Assembly (NCBI GenBank): GCA_049323935.1
Contig: JBMONN010000009.1
Span: 11,216 to 75,215, forward strand
Direction: 5' to 3'
Length of the DNA: 64,000 nt
Source: Thermodesulfobacteriota bacterium
Lineage (GTDB): Bacteria; Desulfobacterota; Desulfobulbia; Desulfobulbales; SURF-16
Under the pieces are notes generated by a model. The model searched no databases. It saw nothing but the letters and a program-made list of their open reading frames with translations, and was not told the DNA's origin. Each line of letters starts with the position of its first letter. The first letter of the stretch is position 1. Of this stretch, positions 10,212-60,149 are shown piece after piece. Position numbers and translations under genes: made by a program.

Positions 10212-10217
10212 CTCGAG

Positions 10218-10235
10218 TCGGAAGTGTGCTTCCGA
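10218..10235. terminator. Hairpin between convergent genes (possible bidirectional terminator)
   Basis: TCGGAAG-tgtg-CTTCCGA, a perfect 7-bp stem between the RR stop (10211) and the rlmB stop (10267). No U-run on either strand. Confidence 0.3.
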
Positions 10236-10266
10236 TAATGAGGGCTGCTCCTCCGTTCGTGGGGGA

Positions 10267-11025: not shown

Positions 11026-11034
11026 GGTGACGGC

Positions 11035-11643: not shown

Positions 11644-11918
11644 GGTTCATCCTCCGGAGCCGGGGAATCATTGAGGGTCGCCGGGGTGAAGCGCTGGGTG
11701 ATGGTTTCCGGCTGCACGGCGGAGAGGATGATGTGGTTGCTGTCAAGAATGATGATGGAACGGGTCTTGCGGCCCTCGGTCACGTCAATGAGTTTTTTCT
11801 GCTCCTTGGCCTCTTCCTTTAATTTCTTGATGGGCGCAGATTTGGGTTTCACCACGGCGAGGATGCGGCTTGCCACCACCGAGTTGCCGAATCCGACATT
11901 GATCATTCTCTGGTCCAT
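11640..11918 (-). CDS. RemA/DUF370 family protein
   Basis: [27 protein letters not shown]......[26 protein letters not shown]. Sits in the conserved yicC-remA-gmk arrangement. Internal ATG 11918 preferred over 11960. Confidence 0.8.
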
Positions 11919-12066
11919 AGACGTCTCTTGCCAAAAATTTTTGTACCTATCGAGCAGCACCGCCCCTGCATTGTCGTCGGCCTGGCCGTATACCTGGAAT
12001 ATAGCGGTCCAATCACCCGCGGAGTCTGCCCTTGAACTCGCTAAACCCCTAAAAACCTCATTTCCC

Positions 12067-12954
12067 CTACTCTAGATTCTGCACCTGTTCCCGCATTTTT
12101 TCCACCTCGTTTTTCAGTTCAACCGCCTGGTGGGCAATAGTAGCGTCGGAGATCTTCGATGCCATGGTGTTGATCTCCCGCAGAAATTCCTGCAAGAGGA
12201 AATCGAGCCGGCGGCCGACCGGTTCCTGTAGTTCGAGAAAATGACGGAACTGATCGATGTGGCTGGCGAGGCGGACCAGCTCTTCGGTGACATCCGCCTT
12301 GTCGGCCAGCAGGGCGATTTCCTGGGCAAGGCGGCTCGGATCGATTTCACTGTCCCCAGCAAGGCGCACCACTCGCTCGCGCAAGGCCTCCTGCTTCTGG
12401 GCGGTGAGCACGGGAATTCGTTCTTCGATCTGCCGCTTGACCCCGCTCAGAAAATCGAGCCGCTGCAGCAGATCGTTTTTCAGGGCCAGCCCCTCGCGCA
12501 GCCGCATGTCGTCGGTCAATCGCAGCGCCTGCTGCAGGGCCTGCAGCACCAGCGGCCACTCCTGTTCGACATCGCGCTCTTCTTCGTCGGCCATGATGAC
12601 TCCGGGAAAGGCGGCGATGAGATCGAGGGGATGACTTGAGGCCGGCAACAGCAGATCACTGGTGATCGCCTTGAGGCAGTCGTGATAGCGGCGGGCCAGG
12701 GGGAGGTTGACTGCGATGTTTTTCCCTTCCGTCAGGCCGTTTGCCGGGGTGAGTACCACCTCGATGTGGCCGCGACTGTAGGAGAGGGTGATTTCCTTTT
12801 TGATCCGTTCCTCCAAAACGGTGAACTGGCGGGGGATTTTTACCCGGATATCGGAAAAGCGATGGTTGACCGAACGGATCTCCACGGTCCAGCCGCCGGT
12901 TGCGGTCAGCTGTTCGCCCCGGCCGAAGGCGGTCATGCTGGCTGGATATCTCAT
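12067..12954 (-). CDS. yicC: YicC-family stress-induced protein / endoribonuclease
   Basis: SMTAFGRGE....[16 protein letters not shown]-terminus and C-terminal [11 protein letters not shown] motif. The start could instead be the internal ATG at 12936. Confidence 0.85.
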
Positions 12955-14282: not shown

Positions 14283-14801
14283 ATGATGTTTGCATGCGCA
14301 CAGGCAAAGAGAAGGGAAAATCTGGAGGGTGCGACCAGTGGCGGTATGATCCGTATCAGCCGCCCGCCCGTAGTGGTGGCGGCGACGCGGATTTTCCTTT
14401 GTTGTATGTGCTTGTCGCCAGCCGTGCCGACGGCGGACGCCGCTGTCCGGCACTATATCGAGCTGGTGGCCAGCAGGGAGGAGAGCAAGGAAGCCGGGCG
14501 AAAGGAGAGCTATCTCCATGATATCCGGCAACGGATCGAGAGAAGCAGGCAGTATCCGCTTCCTGCCCGCCGGCGCGGCGAGGAGGGACGGGTAACGGTT
14601 GCATTTGCCCTTGATCATGATGGAAATCTGGAAAGCGTCGACCTGGCCTCATCGTGCCGGCATCGGCGTCTCAATCAGGCCGCCTTGGCGGCAGTCCGGC
14701 AGGCCGCGCCCTTTCCCGCCCCGCCAGCGGGCATCTTCCCGGCTCCCTTGGCCCTGTCCGTTGAACTGGTTTTTTCATTACAAGAGCCGGATGGTGAATG
14801 A
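14283..14801 (+). CDS. TonB-family energy transducer (C-terminal domain protein)
   Basis: N-terminal hydrophobic anchor, then YP..ARRRGEEGRVTVAFALDHDGNL.SV.L..S......N.AAL.AVRQA.PFP, the TonB C-terminal motif. Overlaps the receptor ORF by 4 nt. Confidence 0.75.
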   Translation: MMFACAQAKRRENLEGATSGGMIRISRPPVVVAATRIFLCCMCLSPAVPTADAAVRHYIELVASREESKEAGRKESYLHDIRQRIERSRQYPLPARRRGEEGRVTVAFALDHDGNLESVDLASSCRHRRLNQAALAAVRQAAPFPAPPAGIFPAPLALSVELVFSLQEPDGE

Positions 14802-14848
14802 TCTCGGCCCGGCTGGTAAATTTTATTGACCGAGGAGAAGAGAAAAGG

Positions 14849-17101
14849 ATGAATGAGAGAAGAAAATCGAGGGGCTTAGGAACGGCGTTGACGGTGACGA
14901 TGATATGCCAGCAGCTTGCCGTCGTTCTGCCGGGGATGGCGGGGGAGGTGAAAGAGAAGGTGCAAACGCCGCAAAGCCTGCCGGAGATCGCTGTGGTCGC
15001 CGACAGGATCATCACCCCGACCATGCAGACCGGCGAGACGGTCGCCACCGGCAGCCGGATCACGAAAAAAGGGCTGGAGATACAGGGGGTAGAGGCTGCG
15101 ACCAGCGTCTACGGGGGGCTCAATCTGCTGCCGGGCATCAGTGTCGAACGGGTCGATGCCAATGGACTGGCCGCAGAGATGAACACTATTCGGGTCCGCG
15201 GGGTGCGCGGCATGCTCGGCGCCCTGACCGTCCTCGGGGTGCCCAATTACGGCGGCAATCCCATTGGTCCTCGTGAATATCTCTACGATATGGAGAATAT
15301 GAGCGGCATCGCCGTTTACAAAGGGGCGGTGCCGGCGGACATCGGCGTCGGCGTCGGCAGCCGGGGTGGTGCCCTGGAACTTGAACCTGACTGGCCTGAT
15401 GAGGAGACGGGTATCCGTTTCAGTCAGGGATTCGGTCCCAACGATTACTCCAGGACATTTTTCCGGCTCGACAGTGGCCGGCTGGCGGATGAGAAAACAT
15501 CGCTGGCTGCTTCCGTGTCGTATACCGAAGCAGACAAGTGGCGAGGGCCGGGCACCTTGGGGCCGCGTCGCAATGCCAATCTGGCCGTGGGCCGACCGCT
15601 GGGGGAGGCGATTGAGATCAGATTGTGGGCCAATCACAACGATCTCGATCAACATCTGTACCGGCCCCTGACCTTTATCGATATCAGCGCACTGGGCGAT
15701 AATTATGAAAAGGATTACACCCGATCCATTACCGGCCAAGCCAGCCGGGACATTTTCTATTATGACTACAACCGGGGCGATTACCGCAACGACGATCTGT
15801 TCGCCGCCATCACCTTTCGGCCTGACGGGGCATGGCGGGCGAGCATCAAGCCTTATTATGCGGACGAGGGTGCGGAAATCTTTCAGGGCGTCGCCGCCAA
15901 TGGCGGCATGGTGCAGCAGCGTAACCGGGATATTGAGCGGTATGGCCTGATCGGAGAGGGAGTGATGGAAGGGGAACGTCTTACCACGACCATCGGTTAC
16001 CATTGTGAAGGCGCGGACATGAAGATATTCACCGAAAATTACGCGATAACCCCAACCGGTCTTGCCTCACGTGGCTACGGGGTCTTTGCCAGCAGCGGCT
16101 CCGGATATATCAACAGTCCCTATGTCAAGGTTGCCGGGACAACCGATTTGTGGGACTGGCAGGCCGGGCTCAAATATTTCCATTTCCGAGACGCGGCGAG
16201 CAAGGGGTACGTCACCGGCCCGGGACCGGACTATGCGCTGATGCGGGCAGGGGATCTCGACCGGGAAGCCGTGAACTATGATATCTGGCTGCCCACCCTT
16301 GGCGCCGCCCGGCGGCTCGGTGATAACGTGCAGATTCATGCCGGTTACGGGCGTGGTTTTATCCGGCCTTATTCCTATCTGCCGCTGGTCAGTCTTTACA
16401 ACAGTAATCGAGTGGTTTTCCAGGCCAGGGGAATCGATCTGCAGGCGCTTTTCGACGGCTACGACATGGAAAAATCAGATACCGTGGATATCGGTCTTCG
16501 TTATGACAGCGGCCGGTTGACAACGGATTTTACCGTGTTTTACGGCCGGCATCGGGATCTGCTCACCAGTGTCCATGATCCGAGGGTCAATCTCAATTAT
16601 CAGCAGAACATCGGCAGGGCCACCGCAGTCGGGGCGGAACTCGAGCTGAACCTCTGGCTGAGCGACAGCTTCTCCTTTTTTGTCAATCCCTCCTATACCT
16701 CCCTGACCTATGACGAGGATCTGACCTTTGCGGGGCAACGGCTTGCCACCGCAGGCAACCAGGTGGTGGACACCCCGGAGTGGCTTGTGAAAAGCGGGGT
16801 GATCTGGCGGCGCGGTCCGTTCGAAGTCGTGCCGATGGCGCGTTATATCGACAATCGCTGCGCCGATGTGGAGAATCGCCAGCAGGTTGATTCCTTTGTT
16901 GTCGTTGACTGCCGGCTGAGCTGCCTGCTGCCGCCGCTTCCCGGTTTTCGGGAAACGAAACTCGCCGTTGAATTCAAAAACATTTTTGACAAAAAATATG
17001 TGGCGGTAATCAATGCTTCCGACGATGCCCGCCAGGGCGCGGCAACCTTTTATCCTGGATCGCCACTGAGCGCTTTTGCCAGTCTTTCTCTGCTTTTCTG
17101 A
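14849..17101 (+). CDS. TonB-dependent outer-membrane receptor
   Basis: Signal peptide. Plug region (IAVVADRI...TGSRITKKGLE..G..A.SVYGGLNLLPGI). Long beta-barrel with terminal aromatic (...SLSLLF). ATG 14849 has an RBS. Confidence 0.85.
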   Translation: MNERRKSRGLGTALTVTMICQQLAVVLPGMAGEVKEKVQTPQSLPEIAVVADRIITPTMQTGETVATGSRITKKGLEIQGVEAATSVYGGLNLLPGISVERVDANGLAAEMNTIRVRGVRGMLGALTVLGVPNYGGNPIGPREYLYDMENMSGIAVYKGAVPADIGVGVGSRGGALELEPDWPDEETGIRFSQGFGPNDYSRTFFRLDSGRLADEKTSLAASVSYTEADKWRGPGTLGPRRNANLAVGRPLGEAIEIRLWANHNDLDQHLYRPLTFIDISALGDNYEKDYTRSITGQASRDIFYYDYNRGDYRNDDLFAAITFRPDGAWRASIKPYYADEGAEIFQGVAANGGMVQQRNRDIERYGLIGEGVMEGERLTTTIGYHCEGADMKIFTENYAITPTGLASRGYGVFASSGSGYINSPYVKVAGTTDLWDWQAGLKYFHFRDAASKGYVTGPGPDYALMRAGDLDREAVNYDIWLPTLGAARRLGDNVQIHAGYGRGFIRPYSYLPLVSLYNSNRVVFQARGIDLQALFDGYDMEKSDTVDIGLRYDSGRLTTDFTVFYGRHRDLLTSVHDPRVNLNYQQNIGRATAVGAELELNLWLSDSFSFFVNPSYTSLTYDEDLTFAGQRLATAGNQVVDTPEWLVKSGVIWRRGPFEVVPMARYIDNRCADVENRQQVDSFVVVDCRLSCLLPPLPGFRETKLAVEFKNIFDKKYVAVINASDDARQGAATFYPGSPLSAFASLSLLF

Positions 17102-20143: not shown

Positions 20144-20743
20144 ATGGCCTTTACCTTTTTTTTCCGAGATCTGCCGGTATTGGAACATGCGGTGGAGCAC
20201 ACCATCAGACTGGCTCTGGGCCGGCAGCGGATCAAGGTCTGGGATGCCGGCTGCGCCCTGGGACAGGAGGCATACACCCTGGCCTTTCTTTTTGCCGAGC
20301 GGCTGGGCTCTGCCTTCAACAACCTCTACCTGCATGCCACCGATTATGACAGCGCCAATAATTTCGGCGACATCGTTCGGCAGGCAAGCTACCGGTACGA
20401 CGAACTGCAACGGATACCTCCGGTGATTTTTAGCAGATATTTTGACAGGCAGGCCAATGACCGCTTTCGGGTCTCTGAAAAGATCAGAGCCCGGGTCTTT
20501 TTTCAGTATCACGATCTGCTGACCCTGCAGCCGGTCGGTTCTGATTACGCCCTGATCGTGTGCAAGAATGTTCTGCTCCATTTCAACCCCGAGTCCCGGC
20601 TCCGGGTGCTCGGGATGTACCACCAGTCCCTCTGCCCAGGCGGCTATCTCGCCATGGAACATACCCAGATGATGCCGTCCGAGCTCGATCATCTCTTTGA
20701 ACAGGTTGTGCCGGATGCTCGGCTGTACAGAAGAATCCAGTAA
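20144..20743 (+). CDS. CheR-type SAM-dependent methyltransferase, catalytic domain only
   Basis: [40 protein letters not shown] and GGYLAMEH match the CheR C-terminal domain. The N-terminal helical domain is absent. Confidence 0.8.
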
Positions 20744-20874
20744 AGAAGAAGTCATTGATGAGCGCCGTCCCGCCCATGACGGTCATTATGAAGCATATGA
20801 AACGTCCGGTGAGAGAGAAGGATGATGAAAATCCTCCGGGCAATGACGTCGAAACCCGACATCAGGAGAAAGAC

Positions 20875-23376
20875 ATGAACTGGTTCTACAACATGACATT
20901 ACGGGGAAAGCTGCTGGCAGGATTTGTTGCGGTGGCAATGATCGCTGCCATCATTGGCGGGGTGGGGATCTACAATATTCGAAAGATTGATAACGCCGAC
21001 ACCATGCTTTATGAAAAAATGACTGTTCCCCTGGGAGAAGTGGCACAGATTTCCATTGCCTTTCAGCGGATTCGGGTCAATGGTCGGGATATCATTGCTG
21101 CCAGTTCGAACGAGGAAAAACAGAAATTTGCAGGGCTCATAAAAGAGCTGCGCACAATCATCGACAAGGAGGCTGTGGAGTTCGAAAAGACGATTCTGAC
21201 CGCTGAGGGACAAAGTCTTTTCGAAGAGTTCAAGCAGACGAGAACCTCCTATGGACCTTTACTCGATCGAGTGGTGGCCCTGGCCATGGCGGATAGAGAC
21301 GACGAGGCGACAGCTCTTCTGCAAGGTGAGGCCGGCGTAGCCGCCCGCGCCGAGCAGGAGGCAATTGACAAATTGTTGGAGTCGAAGATCGAGCAGGCCA
21401 GGCTGACAGCTGAACAGAATACCGTTGACGCCAACCGGGCCAGCACCATCATGACCGCCCTGCTGGTTATGGGTGTTCTTCTTGCCGTTGGACTTGGTCT
21501 TTTTATCGCCCGCATCGTCATGAGGCAGCTCGGCGCTGATCCCAAAGAAGTGGGCGAGATCGCCAATCTGGTGGGCAAGGGTGATCTGAGCCGGGAGATA
21601 GACCTTGTCGCCGGCGACAGCAGCAGCGTCATGGCGGCGATGAAAAAGATGGTCGAGGCCATCCGCGCCCTGAGCAATGACGCCTTTATGCTGGCCGAGG
21701 CGGCGGTGGCCGGCAAGCTCGCCACCCGGGCCGATGCCTCCAGGCATCAGGGCGATTACCAGAAGATCGTCATCGGTGTCAACGACACCCTCGATGCGGT
21801 GATCGGTCCGTTGAACGTGGCCGCTGAATACGTGGATCGCATCTCGAAGGGCGATATCCCGCCGATGATCACCGACAACTATAACGGTGACTTCAACGAA
21901 ATCAAGAACAACATCAATAATATGCTCAGGACGATGAACGACCTGCTGAGCCAGACGGATAGTATCATCCGGGCGGCGGCGGACGGCGAACTTGACAAAC
22001 GGGCCGATGCCACCCGGTTTGTCGGCAGCTGGCAGCAATTGGTCAAGGGCATCAACGATATTGTGACCAATATCGTCAATCCATTGATGGTCACTTCCGA
22101 TTATGTTGACCGGGTATCCAAAGGCGATATGCCGCCAATCATCACAGACATCTATAAAGGGCAGTATAACCTGATAAAAAACAACCTGAATATCCTTATC
22201 GAGGCAACAAACAGCATCATTGCCAATGTCCGGCAGGTGTCCCAGGGCAACTTGATGGTGGAGCTCAAAAAGCGCAGCGACAACGACGAGCTGATGCAGT
22301 CATTGTCCGCCATGGTTGCCAATTTGAAAGAAGTCGCTGCCAGCGCCAAGCAGGTATCCCAGGGCAACTTGATGGTGGAGCTCAAAAAGCGCAGCGACAA
22401 CGATGAACTGATGGAATCTTTATCAGATATGGTGGCCAAGTTGAAAGAGGTGGTCATGGAGGTGCAGACCGCGGCGGATAACGTGGCGGCCGGCGCCCAG
22501 GAGATGTCGGCCACTGCCCAGAATATGTCGCAGGGCGCCACCGAGCAGGCGGCGAGCGCCGAGGAGGTTTCCTCCAGCATGGAACAGATGGCATCGAACA
22601 TCCGCCAGAACACCGACAACGCCATGCAGACGGAAAAAATTGCGGTAAAGAGTGCAGCGGACGCCCGTGAGGGCGGCAAGGCGGTCAGTGAGACGGTGAC
22701 GGCGATGAAGCAGATCGCCACCAAGATCTCGATCATCGAGGAGATCGCCCGGCAGACCAACCTGCTGGCGTTGAACGCCGCCATCGAGGCGGCCCGGGCC
22801 GGCGAACACGGCAAGGGCTTTGCCGTGGTCGCCTCCGAGGTGCGCAAACTTGCCGAACGCAGTCAATCGGCGGCGGGCGAGATCAGCAAGCTGTCAACCT
22901 CAAGCGTGGCGGTTGCCGAGCAGGCGGGTGAGATGCTGAACAAGATGCTGCCGGACATCCAGCGCACCGCCGAGCTGGTCCAGGAGATCAGCGCGGCGAG
23001 CAAGGAACAGGACGCCGGAGCAGAACAGATCAACAAGGCGATTCAGCAGCTCGATCAGGTCATCCAGCAGAATGCCGGAGCGACCGAGGAGATGGCCTCG
23101 ACCACCGAGGAGCTGTCGAGCCAGGCAGAGCAGTTGAAAGGGACCATTGCCTTCTTCAGCATCGAGGCAGCCGGTCGGCGGCAGCGTTCCTCTGCCGCTC
23201 AACATCATAAAATTGCCCGACCGCAACCGGCCCTGCTTCATCATGCCGCCGCCCCGGCCGGCGGTCATGCTGGCGTCCGTCCGGGCAAGAAGGATGACGC
23301 CATTCATCTCGAGCTGACGGCCGCTAACGCGAAAACCGGTGTTGATCAGCTTGATGAGGAATTTGAGAATTATTAA
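20875..23376 (+). CDS. Methyl-accepting chemotaxis protein with extended HAMP-like repeat array
   Basis: TM + 4-helix-bundle-like sensor + TM2/HAMP. Several repeats ([28 protein letters not shown] / [28 protein letters not shown]). Signalling domain [44 protein letters not shown] before ATG 20875. Confidence 0.9.
22234..22467 (+). repeat. 117-bp (39-codon) tandem duplication inside the MCP gene
   Basis: CAGGTGTCCCAGGGCAACTTGATGGTGGAGCTCAAAAAGCGCAGCGACAACGA... at 22234 recurs at 22351. Encodes [31 protein letters not shown] twice. Confidence 0.85.
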
Positions 23377-23522
23377 CAGCAACGGATAGTAATGAGTTGG
23401 TTGTCGTCGGTCTTGCGAACCACTGGTGATTCGTCATGGGCGGCAAGGGATTGCCGCCCGGCCGTTGTAACCGATCAACGGCTCAGGCGCCTCCATCTTT
23501 CAGCGACAAGGAGATAATCCAA

Positions 23523-24050
23523 ATGAGTGTAGCGACAATTACCCAAACCGTGCAGTATCTCACCTTCAAACTGGCTGAGGAGGTTTTCGCCCTCGATGTG
23601 GCCAAGGTGCGGGAGATTCTTGAATTGGCGACCATCACCAAGGTGCCGCAGACGCCGGCCTTCATGCGCGGGGTCATCAATCTGCGGGGCAGGGTGGTGC
23701 CGGTCATTGATCTGCGACTCACCTTCGGCATGAGTCGTACCGAGCAGACGGTGGACACCTGTATCATCGTGGTCGAGGTGGATGTCGGCGGTGAGATGAT
23801 CGTCCTCGGCGTGCTGGCCGATTCGGTGCAGGAGGTAGTGGAGATGGAGCCGGAACAGATCGAACCGGCCCCCCACATCGGCACCAGGCTCAACACCGAA
23901 TTCATCAGAGGCATGGGCAAATTGAATAACGATTTTGTCATGATCCTTGATATCGACAGGGTTTTTTCCTCGGCTGATCTGCTGGCCCTGACCGGCGGGG
24001 TGGTCGATGGGCAGCAGCAGGATGTGCAGGTGGAGGCGTCTGCGTTCTGA
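23523..24050 (+). CDS. cheW: Chemotaxis coupling protein CheW
   Basis: YLTFKLAEEVFALDVAKVREILE...VPQTP.FMRGVINLRG.VVPVIDLR pattern. AAGGAG RBS before ATG 23523. Confidence 0.88.
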   Translation: MSVATITQTVQYLTFKLAEEVFALDVAKVREILELATITKVPQTPAFMRGVINLRGRVVPVIDLRLTFGMSRTEQTVDTCIIVVEVDVGGEMIVLGVLADSVQEVVEMEPEQIEPAPHIGTRLNTEFIRGMGKLNNDFVMILDIDRVFSSADLLALTGGVVDGQQQDVQVEASAF

Positions 24051-28196: not shown

Positions 28197-28664
28197 TTAG
28201 CAGCTGCGTGCCTCAGGGCGATAAAGAAAACACGGTCGGCGTGCCCTGCCATGCTCCCGGGGAAAAAAGAAGAGAGGCAGGCCGATCAGCAGGTTGCGGA
28301 GGATGGCGAGGTAGACCGGGCTTGCGTTGCCGGTGCCGAAACAGCCGCAGTCAACCGGCAGCAGCAGGTAACCCTCCGACAGATAAAGAAGAAGAAGGGT
28401 AAAGAGGAGATAGAGTGCGCCCATGATCCGGGCAAGTAAACCTGCTCTGATGCCGGAGAGGGCGAAAAGGCCGAGGGCGACTTCCAACGGCGGATACCAG
28501 CGGGCGATGAGGATCATCTGGTCAAGGTTGAGAATACCCTTTTCCAGCAATGTTTCGAGGAGATCGCCCACCCCCGGCGACTTTATCTTGATGGCACCGG
28601 CAGTGACCAGTAAACCGGCGGCCAGATAATAATCGGTGATGATCAGCAGACCGAGAACCTTCAT
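28197..28664 (-). CDS. MauE/DoxX-family redox-associated membrane protein
   Basis: Four predicted TM helices and the CGCFG motif (PVDCGCFGTG). Its start shares one nucleotide with the stop of the upstream MCP (TGATG). Confidence 0.75.
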   Translation of the reverse strand: MKVLGLLIITDYYLAAGLLVTAGAIKIKSPGVGDLLETLLEKGILNLDQMILIARWYPPLEVALGLFALSGIRAGLLARIMGALYLLFTLLLLYLSEGYLLLPVDCGCFGTGNASPVYLAILRNLLIGLPLFFFPREHGRARRPCFLYRPEARSC

Positions 28665-30100
28665 CAGGCATCCGTCGCTGCCTCGCCGGTGTCGTTTCCT
28701 TCCCAGAATCGCATCAGGGTGTGCATCATGTGGTGCAGGCGCTCCACCTGTTCCTTGACATCCTGAACGGTGGCCGATGCCTCCTGCGACATGGCGGCCT
28801 GCGATTGCACCATATCGTTGATCGAGGCGACCGAAGCGCGGATCTTTTCCTCTGTCACCGATTGCCGTTTGTCGGTTTCCATAATTTTTGTCATCTGAAA
28901 CACCACGGCATCAGCGGCGTTGCTGACCTCGGCAAAGGACGTTTTCAGGGTGTCGACCATGGCGACTCCGGTCGTCACTTTTGTGTCAAGTCGCTTGATG
29001 ATCGCGGCGACCATGCTCGATGTTTCAGCGGTGCGGGTGGCAAGGTTGCGCACCTCGGCAGCCACCACGGCAAAGCCGGCGCCGGCCTCACCGGCCCGGG
29101 CCGCCTCGACCGCGGCATTCAAGGCAAGAAGGTTGGTCTGAAAGGCGATTTCCTCGATGTCTTTGACCAGCGCCGAGATCTCTTTGTCCGCGTCCACCAC
29201 CTCCCGCATGGCGCCTACCACATCCTCGATGGAGCCGCTGGAGCGGGTGGCGGTCCGTTGCAGATCGTTTGCCGCACTCTCCGCCGTTCGGGCCGCTTCG
29301 AGATTTTCTTCAGCCTGGGTTGTCATCTGCGTCATGGTCGAGGAGATGCTGTCGAGCGCCGCCGATGATGAGCTTGTCTCGGTGGCGAGCTGAATCGACA
29401 TGGCGTTGATGTTGTCAATGGCATCCATCAGTCCCTGGGTGGCGTTGGTCGATTCCTGACCCATCCAGTCAAGTTGACGGGAGACGCGTGCGATCATGGA
29501 GAAGATGATGGCACCGATGATGGTCAAGAGGACGATGGAGCCGAGCAGGATGGTGTTGAGTCGGCGGCTGACATCGAGCACATGCCCCATGGCGGTGTTG
29601 TGGCTGGCCGAGCTTTTTTCGGTGATGGCGGCAAGTGCCTTGCGGAGAATGTCGTTTTCCTTGTCAAAGGCCGCGGTCCATGCTGTCTCCTCAGTGTATT
29701 CCTGGTTGACACTGGCCTCCACCATGTTGAGGCCGGCCTCGAAGGAACTCAGGTAGGTTTTTTTGGCCGCGGCGATCTGTTTTGCCGCCTCATCATCGGT
29801 CTGATTGAGTCTGGCAAGCTCGGTGAATTGCTCGATGATTTTTTTGTTGATCGTCTCGATGGCGGCCTGTTCGCTTTTGGTACCGGCGGCGCGGGAGACG
29901 TTGAATTTCTCGATGATATGGGTGACCTGCCCTTTGATCTCGATGGCGATTTTGGTTTCCGGATAGACCTGCCGGGTCACCTTGCCCACCGCTCTTGTAA
30001 ACTGTTTGCTTGCCATCATGGCATAGACGATGATGGTGCCGGAGACGACGAAGAGCAGGAGAAAAAAGAGATAGAGTTTGCGTTTGCCGCCAAATTTCAT
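28664..30100 (-). CDS. Methyl-accepting chemotaxis protein (4-helix-bundle-type periplasmic sensor, no obvious HAMP)
   Basis: TM1 [19 protein letters not shown], ~190-aa helical sensor, TM2, [42 protein letters not shown]. Start taken at the ATG with GGAG 6 nt upstream (30100). 30106 is also possible. The longer track ORF runs through a terminator hairpin. Confidence 0.85.
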
Positions 30101-30141
30101 GAACATCTCCGCCAACGTCCGGTTGCCGGACGTTGCGTTGT

Positions 30142-30183
30142 AAAAAAAAAGCAGAGGAGATGAGATTGGCATCTCCTCTGCTT
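30142..30183 (-). terminator. Rho-independent terminator after the periplasmic rhodanese gene
   Basis: On the minus strand: AAGCAGAGGAGAT-gccaatctc-ATCTCCTCTGCTT (13-bp perfect stem) followed by a U9 run. Confidence 0.85.
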
Positions 30184-30226
30184 GTCGGGCTGGTCGGAAG
30201 CCGGAATTTTTCTGTCGCAACCGGTT

Positions 30227-30955
30227 TTATTCGGTCGGCAGGCCCGCCCGTTTCCAGGCGAGCATGCCGCCGTCGAGAATGGCGAGATCGGTGTAGCCCT
30301 TCATGTGAAGAAATTTGCCGGTGATGCCGACCTGCTTGCCGGCATGGTCCATGATGACGATTTTTTTGTCCTTCGGCAGGGAGGTGAACTGTTCGCTCAG
30401 ATCATCGAGGGGAATGGCGACGGCGTTCTTGATGCGGCCCACGTCTTTGACCTCCTCGCCGCGGATGTCGAGGAGCACGGCGCTATCCGCCATGGCCTGG
30501 ACATCAACAGGGGAGAGCCGCGGCAGATCGACCTTGGGATAATCGACCTTTTTTTCCACCGGATAGCCTTTACCGGCCCAGGCCGGCAGCCCTTCATTGT
30601 AAATCATGACGTTGGTGTAGCCGAGAGCGGTGGCTGCGTTGGCGGCAACCTTGCTTTTCGAACATTTCGGCCCCTTGCAGTAGAAGATGAGCAGGGCATT
30701 TTTGTCGGCCGGCAGCAGCGGGTTGTCGGCGGTCACTTTGCTGCTCGGAATATTGATGGAGCCGGCAATGTACATTTCGTCATGTTCGATGGCGCTTAAG
30801 GCGTCGATCAGCACAAGTGGTTCCTTGGCGTCGATTTTCTGTTTCAGCTGATCGGTGGTGATCAGGACATCTGCGGCCAGAATCGGTTTGGCAGAGAGAA
30901 ACAGGGCGAGGGCCGCCATCACTGACATGAGTAGAGAAAAACGCAGTTTTTTCAT
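30227..30955 (-). CDS. Periplasmic tandem-rhodanese protein (Cys paralogue of the selenoprotein)
   Basis: Signal peptide MKKLRFSLLMSVMAALALFLSAKPILA. Domain 1 has loop FYCKGPKCSKS. Domain 2 has VIMDHAGKQ. AGGAG RBS before ATG 30955. The longer track ORF has no support. Confidence 0.85.
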   Translation of the reverse strand: MKKLRFSLLMSVMAALALFLSAKPILAADVLITTDQLKQKIDAKEPLVLIDALSAIEHDEMYIAGSINIPSSKVTADNPLLPADKNALLIFYCKGPKCSKSKVAANAATALGYTNVMIYNEGLPAWAGKGYPVEKKVDYPKVDLPRLSPVDVQAMADSAVLLDIRGEEVKDVGRIKNAVAIPLDDLSEQFTSLPKDKKIVIMDHAGKQVGITGKFLHMKGYTDLAILDGGMLAWKRAGLPTE

Positions 30956-31182
30956 GATTCCGATCTCCTGTGGTGCTGGGTGGTAACGTGAGAGTAGCGG
31001 GACAGAACGGCTCTTCGCAGGTCGCCTCTGGTTGCGGCGGGTTATTGACGAATGGGCCGCCCTGTATGTCTGAACATCAGTATAGGGACAAAAAAAGGGA
31101 AAAATCAAAAAAAAAAGTGATGCGACAGGGTTTTTTTTGGAACAATAAAATATTTTTGTGTTTCTTGAGAGATAATATTTAT

Positions 31183-31211: not shown

Positions 31212-31305
31212 GGACTAATGTGACATTTTGTCTCAGTATTGTCGGGCGAATGCACATTGTGGTGCTGTTGCGGCGCAAAATATAAATAATAATGTTGGAG
31301 GGAAC

Positions 31306-32628
31306 ATGCAGAAAAAAATTTTACAGAAATTCGTGCCGGTGATGATTTTTTTTGCGTTGCTGGTCGGCTGCGGCGCCAAAAATGGTGAGGTAGCGCCGGC
31401 GGCCGGCAATGACGTGGGGAAAACCGTTGTCCAGAAGGAGCAGAACGTCTACAAGGGCGAGGTGACGGGCAAGTCAGAGAAGGCAAAAACCATTTCCATG
31501 AAGGTTGGCAAAGGCGAGGATGCCAAGAGCGTCATGGTCAAGTTTGACGACCAGACCACCGGCCTCGAGTTTGCCGAAAAGGGGCAGGCAGCCATCGTCG
31601 AATACCGGATGGTCGGCTCGGACAAGGTTGCCACGGTCATTAAACCGAAACTGGCCGAGCTGCCCAAAGGAACCTCCGAGGCAAAGACCGATTATGTCGC
31701 CGCTCTCATCGCCAAGGGCGGCGCCTATCAGCTCATCGATTCCCGGCCGGCGGGGCGCTTCCATGCCGGCTCTCTGCCGACTGCAGTCAGTATCCCGGTG
31801 GATCAGCTGAAGAAGGAAGGGGCGGGCCTGCTGCCCAAGGATAAAAACACTGAACTGATCTTTTTCTGCGGAGGGCCCACCTGAGGGATGAGCACCGATT
31901 CCGCCGGTCTGGCGGTAAAAGCAGGATACAAGAACGTCAAGGTTTATCTCGAAGGCGCGCCCGGCTGGCAGAAGGCCGGCAATTATGTCGTGGCCAGCAA
32001 TAATTTTGTCGAGAAGGGTAATATCGTCCTCGTTGATCTGCGCAGTGCGGCCGAGTACAATCAGGGGCATATTCCGAGGGCCTACAGCATCCCCTTTGCC
32101 GAACTGGAAGACGCCGAGGATGATTTCCCGGAGAACAAGACGGCGCCCATCGTCTTTTACGGGGACAACGCGGTCAAGGCCTTCAAGATGGCGAAAAAAT
32201 GGGGTTACAAGGGATCCGCTGTCTACGAAGGCGGCATTGCGGCATGGACTACGGCCGGCAAAAACCTCGATACCTCCGCCTCCCCGGATGAAATCGTCTG
32301 GGTCCGTATCCTTGGTCCCGGAGAGATCAGCACCGCTGATTTTCAGAAGGTCATCGATAATCAGCCGGCCGACAAGCTTATTCTCGATGTGCGCACCAAC
32401 GACGAGGTCAAGGACGGCATGTTCCCCGGTGCCGCCCATATCCCGTTGGATGAGCTTGGCGCAAAGATGAATACCCTGCCCAAGGACAGGGAGATTCTTG
32501 TCCACTGCACCACCGGCGCCCGGGCGGAAATGGCCTATGACGAGCTGAAGAAATCCGGCTTCACAGTCCGCTATGTCGTCTGTAATGTGGAGTGTGATGC
32601 CGATGATGGGTGTGAAATCGTTGAATAG
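31306..32628 (+). CDS. Triple-rhodanese lipoprotein, predicted selenoprotein (Sec at codon 193, TGA 31882-31884)
   Basis: Lipobox LLVGC. Track ORFs 31228..31884 and 31888..32628 share a frame and are separated only by TGA-GGG. Read-through [40 protein letters not shown] aligns with FYCKGPK-C-SKSKVAANAATALGYTNVMIYNEGLPAWAGKG of the neighbouring paralogue. The third domain has the canonical loop HCTTGARA. Confidence 0.8.
31882..31915 (+). promoter_or_regulatory. UGA + candidate bacterial SECIS hairpin
   Basis: 16 nt after the UGA: CCGCC-GGUCU-GGCGG (31901-31915), a 5-bp GC stem with a GGUCU apical loop. It can extend by two A-U pairs if U31916 is bulged. Confidence 0.55.
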
Positions 32629-32659
32629 GTAACCGTTGCTCTTTTTCGACCTCTCGGAA

Positions 32660-32701
32660 AGGGGTACCGGACGCGCAGGCGTTCGGTGCCCCTTTTTTTT
32701 T
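32660..32701 (+). terminator. Rho-independent terminator after the rhodanese selenoprotein gene
   Basis: AGGGGUACCG-(14-nt loop)-CGGUGCCCCU, a 10-bp stem with one G-U pair, followed by a U9 run. Confidence 0.85.
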
Positions 32702-32861
32702 GTGTGGTTGCCCCTCTCCGCGCCCTTTCCTGTCAGGCATTGAAAAAAAACTTTTCTTCCGGGTGGCCCCCACCTATAATCAGACCAGCAGACCATACCA
32801 TTATCACTGCTCTCTTATCGCCGCCGTGCGCCCACTTGCCGCAATCAGACAACAGGAGAAA

Positions 32862-34643
32862 ATGCCGATGATGCTTGTCCCCAACATCAAAACCAGGATG
32901 ATTGTCATGATCTGTGTGTCCCTGCTGGGACTGCTCATTGTTTTTCTCAATGCCAACCAAGCGCTTACCCGTAATATCGATATCAGCTCCCGGGTCAAAA
33001 ACGAAAAATTCGTGATGGCCATTGATATCGAAAAATTCAGCGCCGAGGCCCGCAAACTCTCAGCTGATGTGGAGATCAGCGCGACAACCGAATCCCTCGA
33101 CAACCTGGAAAAGGCCAAGGCGGACAAGGCTGCTCTGGCCAAGCGGATCACGGAAATTGCGGCAACCTCGCATAATGAGGAGATGAAAAAGCTGCTTACC
33201 GATCTTGGCAGGATGACGGATCAGGTGCTGGATGCCGGCAAGCGTTGGGTGGAGTTTGCTTTTGCCCAGCAGTATGCCGAATCGTTCGCCGCCGAAGAGG
33301 AGTTCAAGGGGTTGAAAAAGAAATATTTTGATTTGCTGGGGCAATTACAGAAACAGGCTCGTTCCGATCTTGAGCAGTCCCTTGATCTCATTCATTCCCT
33401 CTCCCGGCAGAGCATCCGCATCAATCTGGTCATCTTTTGCATTACCGTGCCTATTGTCCTTTTCCTCTCCGTCTTCACGGTTGTCACCATTGTCCGCCCC
33501 CTGGAAAAAACAGTGCATTTCGCCGAAAAGGTGGCGGCAGGCGATGTCTCCCATCAGCTCGACATCACGACCAAAGACGAATTGGGAGCCATGAGTCGGG
33601 CGTTAAACAATATGGTGCAGAGCCTTGCCCAGAAAAGCGCAGTGGCGGAATCGATCGCCGCCGGTGATCTGCGCTGCGAGGTGGGGATTGCCTCGGCGCA
33701 GGACACCCTGGGTCACTCCCTGAAAAAGATGGTGGAGAACCTGGGGGCCATGATCGAGGATGTTCAGAAAAACGCCGCTCATCTCTCCGTCGCCGCCGAT
33801 TCTCTCTCCGGGCTTTCCATGCACATGGCGGAAGGGGCGGAGGAGATGAGCGCCCAGACCCAGGATGCAACATCCTTTATCCATGATATCAGCGCCCATG
33901 CCCAGAACGTCACCGCCACCGCCCGCAAGATGTCGGAGAACATGGGCGCCATCGCCGAGACGACGGAACGGATGTCCGCCGCCATTCTCGCCATCGGCAC
34001 CAATGCCAGGGACGGGGTTGAGGTGACGGAGGCGGCGATCACCATGTCCGATCGGGCGACCCGGACCATCATGTCACTGCACGAGACGGCCATTGAGATC
34101 GGTAAGGTGACCACCGCCATCAATGACATCACCGAGCAGACCAAGCTGCTGGCCTTGAACGCCACCATCGAGGCGGCCCGGGCCGGCGAGGCCGGTAAGG
34201 GCTTTGCCGTGGTTGCCGGCGAGGTGAAAGAGCTGGCCAAGCAGAGTGCTGTCGCCGCGGAAAATATTGCAACTCTTATCGGCCAGGTGCAGAACAGTAC
34301 CGGCGATGCGGTCCATGTCATCGGCGAGGTGGCCGACACAATCAGGAAGGTGAATCAGTCATCCCGCCAGATCAGTCAGGCGGTGGAAGAGCAGGCCCGA
34401 GAATCGCACGGCATGGCGGTCAGTGTCACTGAGGTCAATGAAGGGGCAAACAACATTGCCGCCGCCATCCGCGAGCTGGCGGCCAAGGCCCATGACACGG
34501 CGACCAATATCAGTGAGGTCAAAACCGTGGTTGATAACAGCACCGAGGGGATCCACAAGATTTCCGGCGCTGCGGCGGAACTGTCGGAACTTGCCGGCCG
34601 GCTGGATGAACTGGTCGGTCAATTTCATCTGGAGCGGTCGTAA
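32862..34643 (+). CDS. Methyl-accepting chemotaxis protein (helical periplasmic sensor + HAMP)
   Basis: CAGGAG RBS before ATG 32862. Two TM segments. HAMP ([41 protein letters not shown]). [41 protein letters not shown]. Confidence 0.88.
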
Positions 34644-41651: not shown

Positions 41652-41831
41652 GGTGTTTTCCTGAAAAGTGATGGTGAGAAGACAGGGTGGGACGGACGAG
41701 CGCGCGGTCCTTCCGACCACCTCTTACTTTAACGACCTGGATTTTTCTTGCAAGGCCTAAAATCAGGAGCTCATGTCCGATCCTCTAGGAGGAAGACAGG
41801 TATTTTGCCGCTGCGGTCAGGCGACTATGTC

Positions 41832-41860
41832 TTGCTTAAATTTGCCGGGAAGAGTAAATT
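41832..41860 (+). promoter_or_regulatory. Putative sigma-70 promoter for msbA
   Basis: TTGCTT, 17 nt, TAAATT, about 90 nt upstream of ATG 41952. Confidence 0.3.
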
Positions 41861-41951
41861 TCTCTATTTGTTCTCCGGTGGGGTCATCCGATCGGCAGGG
41901 CCGCAGAGCAGGCAGCGTCATGCCTGATCGTTCTTTGTTTGGCAGGAGCCA

Positions 41952-43724
41952 ATGGCAACCTTCTCCCTCGTCACTCTTTTTGACCAAAAAATCGTCCGAA
42001 TGGTTCGGCCTTACTCCGGCCGGGTCCTGCTTGCCCTGCTCTTCAGTGTTATCTCCTCCGGGGCGAGTGGCGCCATTGCCTGGCTGCTGAAACCTGTCAT
42101 CGACTCCATCTTTGTCGAAAACAAGTTTTCGATGCTGGTCTGGCTGCCGGTCGTCATCCTCCTGCTCTATGCGGTGCGCGGCAGTTGTGAAATGGTCTAC
42201 AGCTACCTGATGCGCTCCTCGGGAATCAAGCTGGTGCGGGATCTGCGCATCCGCCTTTACGAACACCTGCTCCATCTGCCCCTCTCTTCGCTCGGCAAGG
42301 AATCCTCCGGCAAGATGATCTCCCGCATCCTGACCGACACCACCCTGGTGCAGGGACTGGTCGGTGATACCCTGCTTACCGTGTTCAAGGAGATTCCCAC
42401 CATCATCGTACTGCTCGGAGTGGCCTTTTACCGGCGTTGGGACATTACCCTGCTTGCCCTCATCGGCATGCCGCTGGTGATCGGCGCGGCCAATAAGGTG
42501 GCCCGCATCGTCAAGATGAAACGGACCCAGGCCCAGCAGACAGTAGCGACCCTGACTCATTTTATTAGTGAAGCGGCCGTTGGCGCCAAGGTGGTGAAAA
42601 TTTTTGTCAACGAGGAAGGGCAGGCCTCCCGTTTCCGGAAAACCAGCCATTCCAACTACAGCCAGGAGACGAAGATCGTCCGCTACAAGGAACTGGCCAA
42701 GTTCATCGTTGATATCTCCACCGGCGTCGGCGTGGCCATCGTCATCTGGTATGGCGGCAATCTGGTGGTCAATGGGGTGATCACCAGCGGTGATCTTTTT
42801 TCCTCCCTCGGCGCGGTGGTGATGATCTTTAATCCGGTCAAGCAGGTGGGCCGTTCCTATGCGATTTTTCATGAAATCATGGGCGCCACCGATCGCATCT
42901 GGTGGCTGGAGAGAATGGAGAAAGAGCAAAGCGGTGACATCCCGTTGCCCTCGTTTACGCGGGAGATCCGTTATGTGAACGTTTCCCATCGATACGGCGA
43001 CAAGGGAGATCTGGTGCTCGACGCCATCGATCTGACGATCGGCAAGGGGGAGGTGGTGGCCATTGTCGGGCCGAGCGGGGCGGGCAAGACGACCTTCATT
43101 GATCTCCTGCCCCGCTATTACGACCCGGCCGTCGGCCGCATCGAGATCGACGGCCATGACCTGCGCGCGGTGAAACTGCCGGATCTGCGCAGACTGATCG
43201 GGCTTGTCAGTCAGGATATCGTCCTCTTCAACGCGACGATCCGGGAAAATATCGCCTTCGGTGCACCCTCCGCAACGGACAGCGAGGTGGAACAGGCGGC
43301 TGGTCTGGCCTTTGCCCATGATTTTATTTGCGAGTTCCCGGATGGCTACGAGACCATGCTCGGCGAGCGGGGCCTCAACCTCTCCGGCGGCCAGCGGCAA
43401 CGTATTGCCATTGCCCGGGCCATCCTGAAAAACCCGCCGATCCTCATCCTCGATGAGGCGACCTCGGCCCTTGATGCCGTGTCCGAGGGGCTGGTGCAGG
43501 CGGCCCTGGAACGGCTGATGCATGACCGCACCACCATTGTTGTTGCCCATCGGCTCTCCACCATCCGCAAGGCGGACCGCATCCTCGTCATGGAGCGCGG
43601 CCGTATTGTCGCCCAGGGTAGCCATGATGACCTGCTGGCGACATCGGATATGTATAAGGAACTTTATCTCACTTACAGCGAGAAGGGAAGCGAGCAGTCA
43701 ACGACCCTCTCCGACCCGGCATGA
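41952..43724 (+). CDS. msbA: Lipid A export ABC transporter (permease + ATPase), MsbA-like
   Basis: Six-TM domain followed by GPSGAGKTT, LSGGQRQRIAIARA and ILILDEATSALD. LPS-gene neighbourhood. Confidence 0.85.
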   Translation: MATFSLVTLFDQKIVRMVRPYSGRVLLALLFSVISSGASGAIAWLLKPVIDSIFVENKFSMLVWLPVVILLLYAVRGSCEMVYSYLMRSSGIKLVRDLRIRLYEHLLHLPLSSLGKESSGKMISRILTDTTLVQGLVGDTLLTVFKEIPTIIVLLGVAFYRRWDITLLALIGMPLVIGAANKVARIVKMKRTQAQQTVATLTHFISEAAVGAKVVKIFVNEEGQASRFRKTSHSNYSQETKIVRYKELAKFIVDISTGVGVAIVIWYGGNLVVNGVITSGDLFSSLGAVVMIFNPVKQVGRSYAIFHEIMGATDRIWWLERMEKEQSGDIPLPSFTREIRYVNVSHRYGDKGDLVLDAIDLTIGKGEVVAIVGPSGAGKTTFIDLLPRYYDPAVGRIEIDGHDLRAVKLPDLRRLIGLVSQDIVLFNATIRENIAFGAPSATDSEVEQAAGLAFAHDFICEFPDGYETMLGERGLNLSGGQRQRIAIARAILKNPPILILDEATSALDAVSEGLVQAALERLMHDRTTIVVAHRLSTIRKADRILVMERGRIVAQGSHDDLLATSDMYKELYLTYSEKGSEQSTTLSDPA

Positions 43725-43776
43725 AGGCGGCCCGCCCCTCGTCATCCAGGGCGGCCGACGCAACGGGAAGGGCGAT

Positions 43777-45357
43777 ATGAAAGATTTTCCGGCGGGAAAA
43801 AAGACGATTATCATACCCGGCCTGATCGTCGTGGTCGGCTTTCTCCTGCGGCTCTACGCTTTTTTCCACAGCCATGCCGTCAATGCGGACGGCATGCTCT
43901 ACATCCAGCAGGCCAAGGCCTTTCATTACGGCCTCTATGACTCACTGACCCAGTGCTATGGCTACCTTCATTCCTATTTTGTTTTGATCTCTCTTGCTTA
44001 CCCCCTTTTTGACGACTGGGTAATGGCGGCCAAGGCGGTCTCTCTTGGCTTTGCCACCCTGACCATGGTACCGCTTTATCTGTTGCTGCGAAGATTTCTC
44101 GCCTTTCCCATCGCTGCCGTCACCCTGCTCGTCTTTGCGGTGAATCCCGCCCTGATCGAGATGAGCGTGAAAATCATCCGCGATCCTTGTTTCTGGTTTT
44201 TCCTGACCACCGGCCTTTCGCTGTTCGTCCTCCATGACCGTGGAAAAGACGGCCTCCTTCTCGCCCTTTCCAGTCTGTCGTTTCTCCTCGCTGCCCTGGC
44301 GCGATTCGAGGCCGTGGTCTTTATCGGCGTCAGTCTGCTTTTTCTGGTGTTTACCAGGCAGGACGACAGGTGGCGGAAAATAAGCTGGTTCTGTCTGCCC
44401 CTGGCCGGGGTGATCCTGCTGACCCTGCTGACGTTGCCGGTGCTGGAGCATGATCTCCGGCAATGGATCTATCCCCGTTCGGTGCTCGCCCCCTTTTTTC
44501 AGCTGGCGGAACGATATGGGCGAATCCGCCTCAGTCTGGAGGCCATCGGGGTTCGCGAAAGTGATCCCTTCTGGCAACGTCATTTTTTTCCGACGGTCGG
44601 CAATCTCATGTGGTGGCTCGGTTTGGGCTCGGTGCTGGTTACAATTGTCCGCACCTTTTTTGAGCCGTTTTTTCTCTTCTTTCTTTTCGGACTGAAAGGC
44701 GTCCGGCCGCGCATCGCCGCGGACAGGATGCTTGGCTATCTCCTGCTGCTTGGCGCCTGCACCTTCGCCGTGCTCTTTCTCCACGAGCTGGGGAACTGGA
44801 CCATGCGCGGACGCTTTGTCGTCTTTTTTGTCATTCCCACCTTTGTTGTTATCGGTTTTGGCGTAGAGAACCTGTTCTCGTGTTTTGGGCCATTAACGGA
44901 AAAAGGTCGTCGCCTTTTCTTTCTGCTGCTCGGCCTGGTGATCTTTGTTGTTCCCCTGGCGAAAAATCTCAATGAAAACCGGCAGGCGGCCAGGATTTTT
45001 GAGGAAATCGGCGTTTCCATCGCCCGTGCCGAGAAGGGCGGCCGTGAGGTGATGGTGGCCGGCGCCCTCGCTTCTGACGAGTTGCAGCTTGTCGCCTTTT
45101 TTGCCAATTTGCCGGCTCGGACCGCCTCGTGCGCCCATGAACTCGCGCGTAAAATTGATCCCCGCCAGATTGGGGCCGACCGCCGTTGGCAGGAAGGTGT
45201 CCGTTATCTGCTTTGGGATGAGAAAAACTGGAGCAGCGAGGAGCTGGCGGGTTTGCGCCGGGGAGAAGAGTTTTCCTGCTCGGAGATCGGGCAATGGCGG
45301 GACAAACGACTCGGAGAGATCGTGCTTTTTCGAATCAATGACAAAAAAATGTTCTGA
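43777..45357 (+). CDS. Glycosyltransferase family 39 (ArnT/PMT-like) membrane protein
   Basis: Multi-TM protein with an early N-terminal loop (NADGMLYIQQAKAF) and about 10 further TM segments, typical of lipid-linked-sugar transferases. ATG 43777 follows the msbA stop. Confidence 0.65.
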   Translation: MKDFPAGKKTIIIPGLIVVVGFLLRLYAFFHSHAVNADGMLYIQQAKAFHYGLYDSLTQCYGYLHSYFVLISLAYPLFDDWVMAAKAVSLGFATLTMVPLYLLLRRFLAFPIAAVTLLVFAVNPALIEMSVKIIRDPCFWFFLTTGLSLFVLHDRGKDGLLLALSSLSFLLAALARFEAVVFIGVSLLFLVFTRQDDRWRKISWFCLPLAGVILLTLLTLPVLEHDLRQWIYPRSVLAPFFQLAERYGRIRLSLEAIGVRESDPFWQRHFFPTVGNLMWWLGLGSVLVTIVRTFFEPFFLFFLFGLKGVRPRIAADRMLGYLLLLGACTFAVLFLHELGNWTMRGRFVVFFVIPTFVVIGFGVENLFSCFGPLTEKGRRLFFLLLGLVIFVVPLAKNLNENRQAARIFEEIGVSIARAEKGGREVMVAGALASDELQLVAFFANLPARTASCAHELARKIDPRQIGADRRWQEGVRYLLWDEKNWSSEELAGLRRGEEFSCSEIGQWRDKRLGEIVLFRINDKKMF

Positions 45358-53429: not shown

Positions 53430-53536
53430 GCATCTTTTCATCCACACCCCTGCTTGACAGAGAAGTCCGGTCTGGTGTTACAATGAAATCATGGAGTTGA
53501 TTGCCCCCACTTTGCCACGCAAGGAGAATAAACACC

Positions 53537-54592: not shown

Positions 54593-54642
54593 ACATGACC
54601 GCTCCCTTCTTTCGCCTCCCCCCTCGCTTGTCGGCATTGTTT

Positions 54643-60038: not shown

Positions 60039-60149
60039 GCAGGAACCGTCCGATTTTTTCACCGATCCGTGCAAGGTATTCGACGAACCGGTATCGGCAA
60101 TGCTACAATACCCCATAACCATATCACACTGTAACCAGGGAGGCGGCGT

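Follow-up and report, generated by a model that had tools for sequence, protein, structure and literature searches.

A probable selenocysteine-containing, three-domain rhodanese widespread in Desulfobulbia

The subject of this analysis is a rhodanese gene at positions 31306–32628 of a 64,000-nucleotide stretch of DNA (hereafter the window) from a Thermodesulfobacteriota bacterium of the order Desulfobulbales. The ATG at 31306 opens a reading frame that extends to a TGA at 31882–31884, continues in frame from 31885 to 32625, and is closed by a TAG at 32626–32628. The original prediction, made from the sequence alone, had treated the two open reading frames (ORFs) found here as a single gene, on the grounds that they share one frame and are separated only by TGA-GGG. 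Both points were verified: the frame resumes as GGG ATG AGC, and the read-through peptide is the one that had been quoted, with ...LIFFCGGPT-[UGA]... at the recoding site of a 440-residue product. We conclude that 31306–32628 is very probably one monocistronic gene that encodes an exported selenoprotein, in which the UGA is read as selenocysteine (Sec). This reading is carried by the Cys/Sec pairing at the position in question, by orthologues with TGA but never TAA or TAG, and by the codons of a downstream hairpin, which are frozen in the Sec forms only.

The codon at the UGA column in relatives

The codon aligned to the UGA was compared in genomic DNA from 80 species representatives in which a relative is encoded, nearly all of them metagenome-assembled genomes of Desulfobulbia. 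It is TGA in 65, a recurrence far beyond chance, TGC in 12, TGT in two, and unresolved in one; neither TAA nor TAG, which the original prediction had named as evidence that would count against it, was present in any of the 80. In the 65 genomes with TGA, the tblastn matches run across this codon from residue 1 to residue 440. Four cultured strains are included in the sample, i.e., Desulfogranum marinum DSM 2058, Hydrosulfovibrio ferrireducens CB1MN, Desulfopila sp. IMCC35008, and Desulfopila aestuarii DSM 18488, and all four are listed among the TGA carriers.

The homologues recovered from the protein database are of two classes, full-length proteins of about 440 residues and many C-terminal pieces of 245–247 residues, which cover the C-terminal 56% of the query and all start at a Met located two codons past the UGA column. 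An alignment of homologues had been proposed as a check, and it places Cys at this column in 64 of the 64 full-length proteins, within the motif [FY]CGGxTCGM[ST]. A representative library clustered at 50% identity was searched exhaustively, and of the 148 newly listed representatives at least 45 have ...[FY]CGGxT as their exact C-terminus. Automatic gene calls thus truncate proteins at the UGA throughout the family. A few truncated relatives (P0199 and similar representatives) end in ...YGQGPT instead; here the Cys at position 0 of the loop is replaced by Gly while the truncation at the Sec site is retained. For these proteins, catalysis may depend on Sec alone.

In a neighbour-joining tree, the Cys forms branch from among the Sec forms at six or more separate points, which is the usual pattern of Sec/Cys interconversion. 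Alternation of Cys and Sec is the classical signature of a selenoprotein (PMC13188914). Other characteristics by which a selenoprotein gene is recognised are likewise present: the coding sequence is conserved on both sides of the in-frame UGA, orthologues in other organisms carry TGA and no other stop codon at the site, and Cys is aligned to the UGA in the full-length homologues, in the 14 genomes with TGC or TGT, and in a paralogue within the window. The start of this paralogue, which is transcribed divergently, is 350 nt from the Sec gene. It shares 30% identity (E value 3e-22) with the read-through protein over two domains, and BLASTP aligns its CKGPKC to CGGPT-U; the second Cys of the paralogue thus coincides with the Sec position, in agreement with what had been read from the sequence.

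Under the alternative that the UGA is a true stop, the locus would yield an N-terminal piece of 192 residues and a C-terminal piece of 246 residues, the latter made by reinitiation, after termination, at an AUG 3 nt past the UGA, and the two might reassemble into a split rhodanese. TGA is indeed a common stop codon in this genome, where it closes 16 of the 30 Pfam-supported genes of the window and thus has not been reassigned; the sequence GAGGG precedes ATG 31888; and both the gene callers and the NCBI Prokaryotic Genome Annotation Pipeline (PGAP) annotate two proteins. We nevertheless consider this alternative very improbable. The break would fall within the six-residue catalytic loop, and the Met that would serve as start is, in all Cys forms, a conserved residue in the interior of the chain (C-G-M-S). 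Moreover, the codon alternates only with those for Cys, the GAGGG is just 1 nt from the ATG, which is a poor spacing for a ribosome binding site, and only the TGA forms conserve the synonymous sites of the SECIS-like hairpin described below. No terminator signal comparable to the one behind the TAG was found after the UGA at 31882–31884.

It is less probable still, to the point of being negligible, that the gene is a pseudogene or that a TGC or TGT was turned into TGA by faulty sequencing or assembly. Although only one base separates TGA from either Cys codon, the locus as assembled independently in Logan has the identical TGA and TGA occurs in 65 other genomes, and both halves are strongly conserved at the protein level.

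In public annotation the family regularly appears as two truncated "rhodanese-like" proteins. The N-terminal piece from the window is deposited in GenBank as MFZ5758873.1, a 192-residue "rhodanese-like domain-containing protein", and that of Desulfopila sp. IMCC35008 is in RefSeq as WP_163336380.1, also of 192 residues. None of the 275 related proteins retrieved contains a U, and none of the NCBIfam selenoprotein models captures the window family. Exact look-ups of the C-terminal halves for the cultured strains gave no match, probably because of different start calls.

A stem-loop downstream of the UGA

The hairpin CCGCC-GGUCU-GGCGG begins 16 nt past the UGA. The original prediction had described it as a perfect hairpin resembling a selenocysteine insertion sequence (SECIS), and the present analysis bears this out. 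The criteria of Zhang and Gladyshev for the bacterial element (bSECIS), as listed in PMC13188914, are an apical loop of 3–9 nt with a G within the first two loop positions, an upper stem of 4–16 bp, a spacing of 16–37 nt between the UGA and the loop, and a minimum free energy (MFE) at or below -7.5 kcal/mol. With a loop of 5 nt (GGUCU), a stem of 5 bp, a spacing of 21 nt, and an MFE of -8.9 kcal/mol when folded alone, the window hairpin is within all of these limits. In a scan of the window the hairpin motif occurred exactly once, and near matches were at chance level.

Among 62 distinct Sec-form sequences, the four inner base pairs do not vary, nor do the loop positions G26 and U27. A compensatory double substitution has changed the closing pair from C-G to A-U in two species, and the fifth pair is seen in approximately 40% of the Sec-form sequences. 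The codons that make up the hairpin differ between the two forms of the gene. Codon +7, counted from the UGA, is GCC in 97% of the Sec forms, while the 14 Cys forms have GCG (7), GCC (6) or GCA (1); codon +8 is GGT in 100% of the Sec forms and variable, even at the amino-acid level, in the Cys forms; codon +9 is CTG in 54 of 64 Sec forms as opposed to ATG in 11 of 14 Cys forms; and codon +10 is GCG in 100% of the Sec forms as opposed to GCG (7), GCA (3), GCC (3) and GCT (1) in the Cys forms.

For a ranking of synonymous sites, we used the 58 columns in which an amino acid with several codons is at least 90% conserved in the Sec forms. The first three ranks by frequency of the top codon are held by codons +8 (1.00), +10 (1.00) and +7 (0.97); the fourth value is 0.83 and the median 0.52. 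Neighbouring Gly codons are a mixture of synonyms, and in the Cys forms the frequency of the top codon at +7 and +10 is only 0.5. The comparison indicates that the downstream stem-loop is under selection at the RNA level, and that it is so only in the TGA forms. The effect extends to the protein: at window positions 31906–31911 (codons +8/+9), the Sec forms have Leu-CUG where the Cys forms have Met-AUG, so that the RNA structure constrains the protein where, and only where, a UGA is present. One Cys form (L049, with TGC; 3565–3624), which is sister to a Sec form (L055; 2839–2898), still carries GCCGCCGGUCUGGCGGC, and its hairpin looks like a relic SECIS left after a recent switch from Sec to Cys.

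The recoding of the UGA at 31882–31884 to Sec is well supported by these comparisons of sequence. In the mechanism that we propose, SelB in complex with Sec-tRNA(Sec) would bind the hairpin at 31901–31915, whose apical loop, 21 nt past the UGA, would present G-G-U, and would deliver Sec at the ribosome stalled on the UGA. Were the stem-loop absent, the UGA would cause termination, as it does for most genes of the genome.

Several observations weigh against Sec insertion at this locus. The selA, selB and selD genes are absent among approximately 45 ORFs of the window that were scanned with Pfam and NCBIfam, and tRNA-Sec was not found in the window, which is without any tRNA. The folding energy of the region is no better than that of shuffled sequences (z = 0.2–0.7). 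Folding had been recommended as a check, and it thus gave a divided answer, with the hairpin stable by itself but the z-scores of the region not significant; as the hairpin is too small for such a test, the comparative codon analysis was relied upon. The hairpin is also short, many orthologues conserve only 4 bp of it, and the consensus has an energy of -6.3 kcal/mol. Searches of Rfam, both at the gathering threshold and with permissive settings, returned no SECIS family or other match, a null result that carries no information, given how sparse the coverage of bacterial SECIS elements is there.

The lack of sel genes within the window could also be explained if the UGA were read through without selenium, either by a near-cognate tRNA for Trp or Cys or by insertion of Cys via the Sec pathway, to give a full-length protein that is not a selenoprotein. 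Cys is acceptable for function at this site, since it is used by the 14 genomes mentioned above. This explanation has, in our estimate, only a very small chance of being correct, as little as that of a true stop. A conserved hairpin with a SelB-type GGU loop at the canonical spacing argues against it, as do the Cys/Sec alternation and the fact that the clade is known to decode Sec. Desulfotalea psychrophila, which belongs to the same order Desulfobulbales, has SelD and 12 selenoproteins (PMC1794560), and by analogy with its clade the source genome is presumed to possess the Sec machinery. A scan for further read-through genes in the window gave only antisense shadow ORFs and thus no second selenoprotein candidate.

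Protein architecture, gene layout and possible function

The features of the locus are compiled in Table 1. The order of domains that the original prediction had assigned to the mature protein, i.e., a Sec rhodanese, a rhodanese without Cys, a canonical CTTGAR rhodanese, and a tail with Cys residues, is reproduced by both Pfam and the alignments. PF00581 matches three rhodanese stretches with 147 bits against a cut-off of 22 (E value 2e-43).

Table 1. Features of the Sec rhodanese locus (window coordinates)
Feature	Position	Strand	Basis or remark
Divergent paralogue, exported two-rhodanese protein, loop C-K-G-P-K-C	30227..30955	-	Pfam; BLASTP
Sigma-70-like promoter candidate	31122..31151	+	Consensus scan, 9/12 matches; weak
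Shine-Dalgarno sequence GGAGGG	31297..31302	+	3 nt before ATG 31306; read from sequence
Signal peptide with lipobox L-V-G-C (residues 19-22; Cys22)	31306..31371	+	Translation
N-terminal five-stranded beta-barrel domain (OB, CusF/SilF-like)	31423..31659	+	AlphaFold, Foldseek
Rhodanese domain 1, carrier of the Cys/Sec loop	31678..32001	+	Pfam PF00581, TsoB profile, AlphaFold
Active-site loop C188-G-G-P-T-U193 (TGC ... TGA)	31867..31884	+	Codon column, alignments
In-frame UGA, predicted Sec, residue 193	31882..31884	+	Sequence, alignments, codon column
Putative bacterial SECIS stem-loop CCGCC-GGUCU-GGCGG	31901..31915	+	Folding, pair conservation, frozen codons
Rhodanese domain 2, without catalytic Cys (loop position YGD)	32002..32271	+	Pfam, alignment
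Rhodanese domain 3, loop C401-T-T-G-A-R406 (TGC 32506-32508)	32308..32580	+	Pfam
C-terminal beta-hairpin tail with two conserved Cys (VEC....C), then stop TAG	32581..32628	+	Alignment, model
Intrinsic-terminator-like hairpin and T-run	32656..32697	+	3' of the true stop TAG

An N-terminal signal peptide is present in all orthologues. The prediction of a lipoprotein stands for the window copy, whose lipobox conforms to the consensus [LVI][ASTVI][GAS]C, but not as a trait of the family, as only around half of the orthologues share the lipobox, the others having type-I signal peptides. The N-terminal region of about 100 residues, originally described as an unknown domain, is modelled as a small CusF-like OB (oligonucleotide/oligosaccharide-binding) barrel. 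The AlphaFold model of this domain from the window sequence has a predicted local distance difference test score (pLDDT) of 80, and its best Foldseek match in the Protein Data Bank (PDB) is CusF/SilF (template modelling (TM) score 0.69–0.73; E value about 1e-3).

The model of the full protein was that of a Cys-form orthologue, P0010, which is 53–54% identical and has the same loop as CGGPTC. It was predicted with a pLDDT of 89 and a predicted TM score (pTM) of 0.79. The leader is disordered, a beta domain of five strands and three rhodanese domains follow, and the C-terminus forms a beta-hairpin. Structures similar to the model are those of multi-rhodanese sulfurtransferases, among them YnjE with its three domains.

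A catalytic Cys that opens a six-residue loop, the hallmark of a rhodanese, is found in domains 1 and 3 and is missing from domain 2. In domain 1, C188 is invariant across the alignments and corresponds to the canonical catalytic position (0), and Sec193 occupies position +5, so that the spacing of five residues that had been predicted between Cys and Sec is that of a C-x4-U loop. The equivalent of Sec193 in domain 3, which reads HCTTGAR, is the Arg of C-T-T-G-A-R. Ordinary rhodaneses have Arg, Ser or Thr at position +5. Residues C401, G404 and R406 of domain 3 are invariant. In the tail, C430 and C436 are nearly invariant in the alignment, and strands are modelled at 428–432 and 435–439.

The promoter candidate is within the AT-rich divergent intergenic region of 350 nt that separates the Sec gene from its paralogue. 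The paralogue is itself monocistronic and has its own strong terminator at 30183–30149 (minus strand); an operon composed of the paralogue, a chemoreceptor gene and a MauE-like gene was considered and rejected on account of this terminator. The paralogue adjoins the Sec gene only in the closest relatives. Against NF041203, a model of Sec-containing rhodaneses, it scores 72.9 bits, which is below the cut-off of 115.

The MauE-like membrane protein is encoded at 28197–28664. Chemotaxis genes are abundant in the window (20144–24050; 28664–30220, minus strand; 32700–34643, plus strand): CheR, a chemoreceptor with tandem HAMP domains, and CheW are clustered, and two further chemoreceptor genes directly flank the rhodanese gene pair. 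Large ORFs of 400–750 residues at 9802–12075, 41817–45357, 53489–54799 and 59559–63749 have no match in Pfam or NCBIfam at the thresholds used. A TonB gene and a TonB-dependent receptor are located at 14283–17101. The receptor was considered as a candidate for the Sec type with an FCYXU motif and was rejected, given that it terminates in ...SLLF followed by TGA.

With regard to function, the pair Cys188/Sec193 is a possible, although still doubtful, redox centre for periplasmic sulfane sulfur, in which domain 1 would serve as a highly reactive acceptor or reductant. The selenolate, located beside the catalytic thiol in the anion-binding cradle, would attack a sulfane sulfur (polysulfide, S0 or thiosulfate), and Cys188 would then resolve the adduct on Sec to form a selenenylsulfide. 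Alternatively, Sec might hold an Se-S(n) adduct that would be a better donor than a persulfide. Domain 3, with its CTTGAR loop, would be a classical persulfide carrier, and the Cys residues of the tail could form a relay. The sole catalogued loop of equal spacing is that of TsoB (U-x4-U), which is fused to a DsbD-like module for the import of reductant (PMC13188914), and this fusion hints at redox cycling. A point against the functional proposal is that no conserved operon partners were found across the 80 loci, except for a histidine kinase and a response regulator in about half of them, where this two-component system is upstream of the Sec gene. Since the gene neighbourhood is not conserved, no partner enzyme is implied.

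A more specific version, which we offer as speculation and consider rather unlikely, is that domain 1 would be a selenenylsulfide-centred reductase or activator of periplasmic sulfane sulfur (polysulfide, S0 or thiosulfate) rather than a passive persulfide carrier, and that the gene may correspond to one of the "periplasmic rhodaneses" reported as highly expressed. Such proteins have been described from sulfur-disproportionating and sulfide-oxidising Desulfobulbia (PMC13047784), with high expression in Desulfurivibrio alkaliphilus and in cable bacteria and with no mention of Sec (PMC13047784). The "two" periplasmic rhodanese genes of D. alkaliphilus (PMC13047784) might be the two halves of the Sec gene. 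If this were true, dissimilatory sulfur cycling in Desulfobulbia would have a hidden dependence on selenium.

Comparison with known systems

Sec-containing proteins related to rhodaneses have been known since 2005–2007 (PMC1088965, PMC1976440), and the literature bears out the statement in the original prediction that such proteins had been proposed earlier (PMC1976440, PMC9312934, PMC13188914). The present family is widespread in Desulfobulbia and unrecognised in databases; its kind, the rhodanese-like selenoproteins, is already established and no new principle is involved. Its re-annotation affects pangenome, transcriptome and proteome work on sulfate reducers, sulfur disproportionators, and relatives of cable bacteria. 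With a natural Cys-x4-Sec loop and Cys-x4-Cys controls in sister species, it also offers a clean system for the role of selenium in sulfane-sulfur chemistry, and the Leu (CUG) of the Sec forms as opposed to the Met of the Cys forms provides an example of a SECIS that shapes a protein sequence.

In Geobacter sulfurreducens, a rhodanese-like lipoprotein of the outer membrane, ExtH (GSU2940; 49 kDa), is encoded beside the polysulfide-reducing selenocytochrome MccSep/ExtKL and has been linked to the chemistry of sulfur, polysulfide or selenite (PMC5877670, PMC6148476, PMC13510729). The window protein can be likened to it by description only, as a rhodanese-like lipoprotein of similar size in a related anaerobe; Sec is not reported in ExtH, and neighbours similar to extI, extJ or extKL (porin, cytochrome) occur neither here nor in any of the 80 loci, which sets the family apart from the ExtH type. 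The Pelovirga locus likewise has no ext genes.

The N-terminal domain resembles the periplasmic Cu(I)/Ag(I) chaperones CusF and SilF in that it is modelled as an OB barrel built of five strands and about 80 residues, and in that the protein is exported; the sequence identity is 13–17% and the E value about 1e-3, which is borderline. In contrast to CusF, the Met, His and Trp ligands are not conserved in the family, in which the only invariant residues of the domain are one Gly, one Thr and one Pro.

YnjE of E. coli and other multi-rhodanese sulfurtransferases (PDB: 3ipo, 2wlr, 1yt8, 6mxv) share with the window protein three tandem rhodanese domains, one of them inactive, and a canonical C-x4-R site in the last. 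The Foldseek matches to this group have E values of 1e-10 to 2e-13 with an identity of only 14–21%, and the global TM scores are low because the domains are arranged differently. Unlike the window protein, members of the YnjE group have neither Sec nor a second Cys in the loop, and they lack both the OB domain and the Cys tail.

As in the bSECIS of the fdhF type from E. coli, the stem-loop is in the coding sequence just past the UGA, with a loop that starts with GGU, a spacing of 21 nt, and a stem of at least 4 bp. It differs in that the conserved stem is very short (4–5 bp) and that no conserved bulged U or lower helix was seen in the family. The core of the window hairpin, GGUCUG, is the same string as in the loop region of fdhF.

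A 2026 review in Applied and Environmental Microbiology distinguishes five forms of rhodanese-like selenoproteins, i.e., form 1 with UxxS, forms 2 and 4 with UxxG, form 3 with CxU (NF041203), and form 5, TsoB, with UxxxxU (PMC13188914). The window protein differs from the catalogued forms in its architecture, being exported and composed of an OB domain, three rhodanese domains and a Cys tail. Its U-G-M-S fits the UxxS of form 1 (PF00581; WP_010941598.1, Geobacter), a comparison made by motif only. To the model of form 3 (NF041203, rhodanese-related selenoprotein LYCAU) it scores 39 bits against a cut-off of 115, and its loop is C-x4-U and not C-x-U, which places it outside this form.

Finally, with respect to TsoB (NF045694), positions 63–157 of the profile match residues 142–229 of the window protein, i.e., rhodanese domain 1 (E value 9e-16). 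The window protein is not a member of the TsoB family, for it scores 57 bits against a cut-off of 805, has Cys and not Sec at position 0 of its C-x4-U loop, and carries no DsbD fusion. Nevertheless, the two proteins have the same 0/+5 spacing in the loop, and in both of them Sec would be part of the rhodanese active site.

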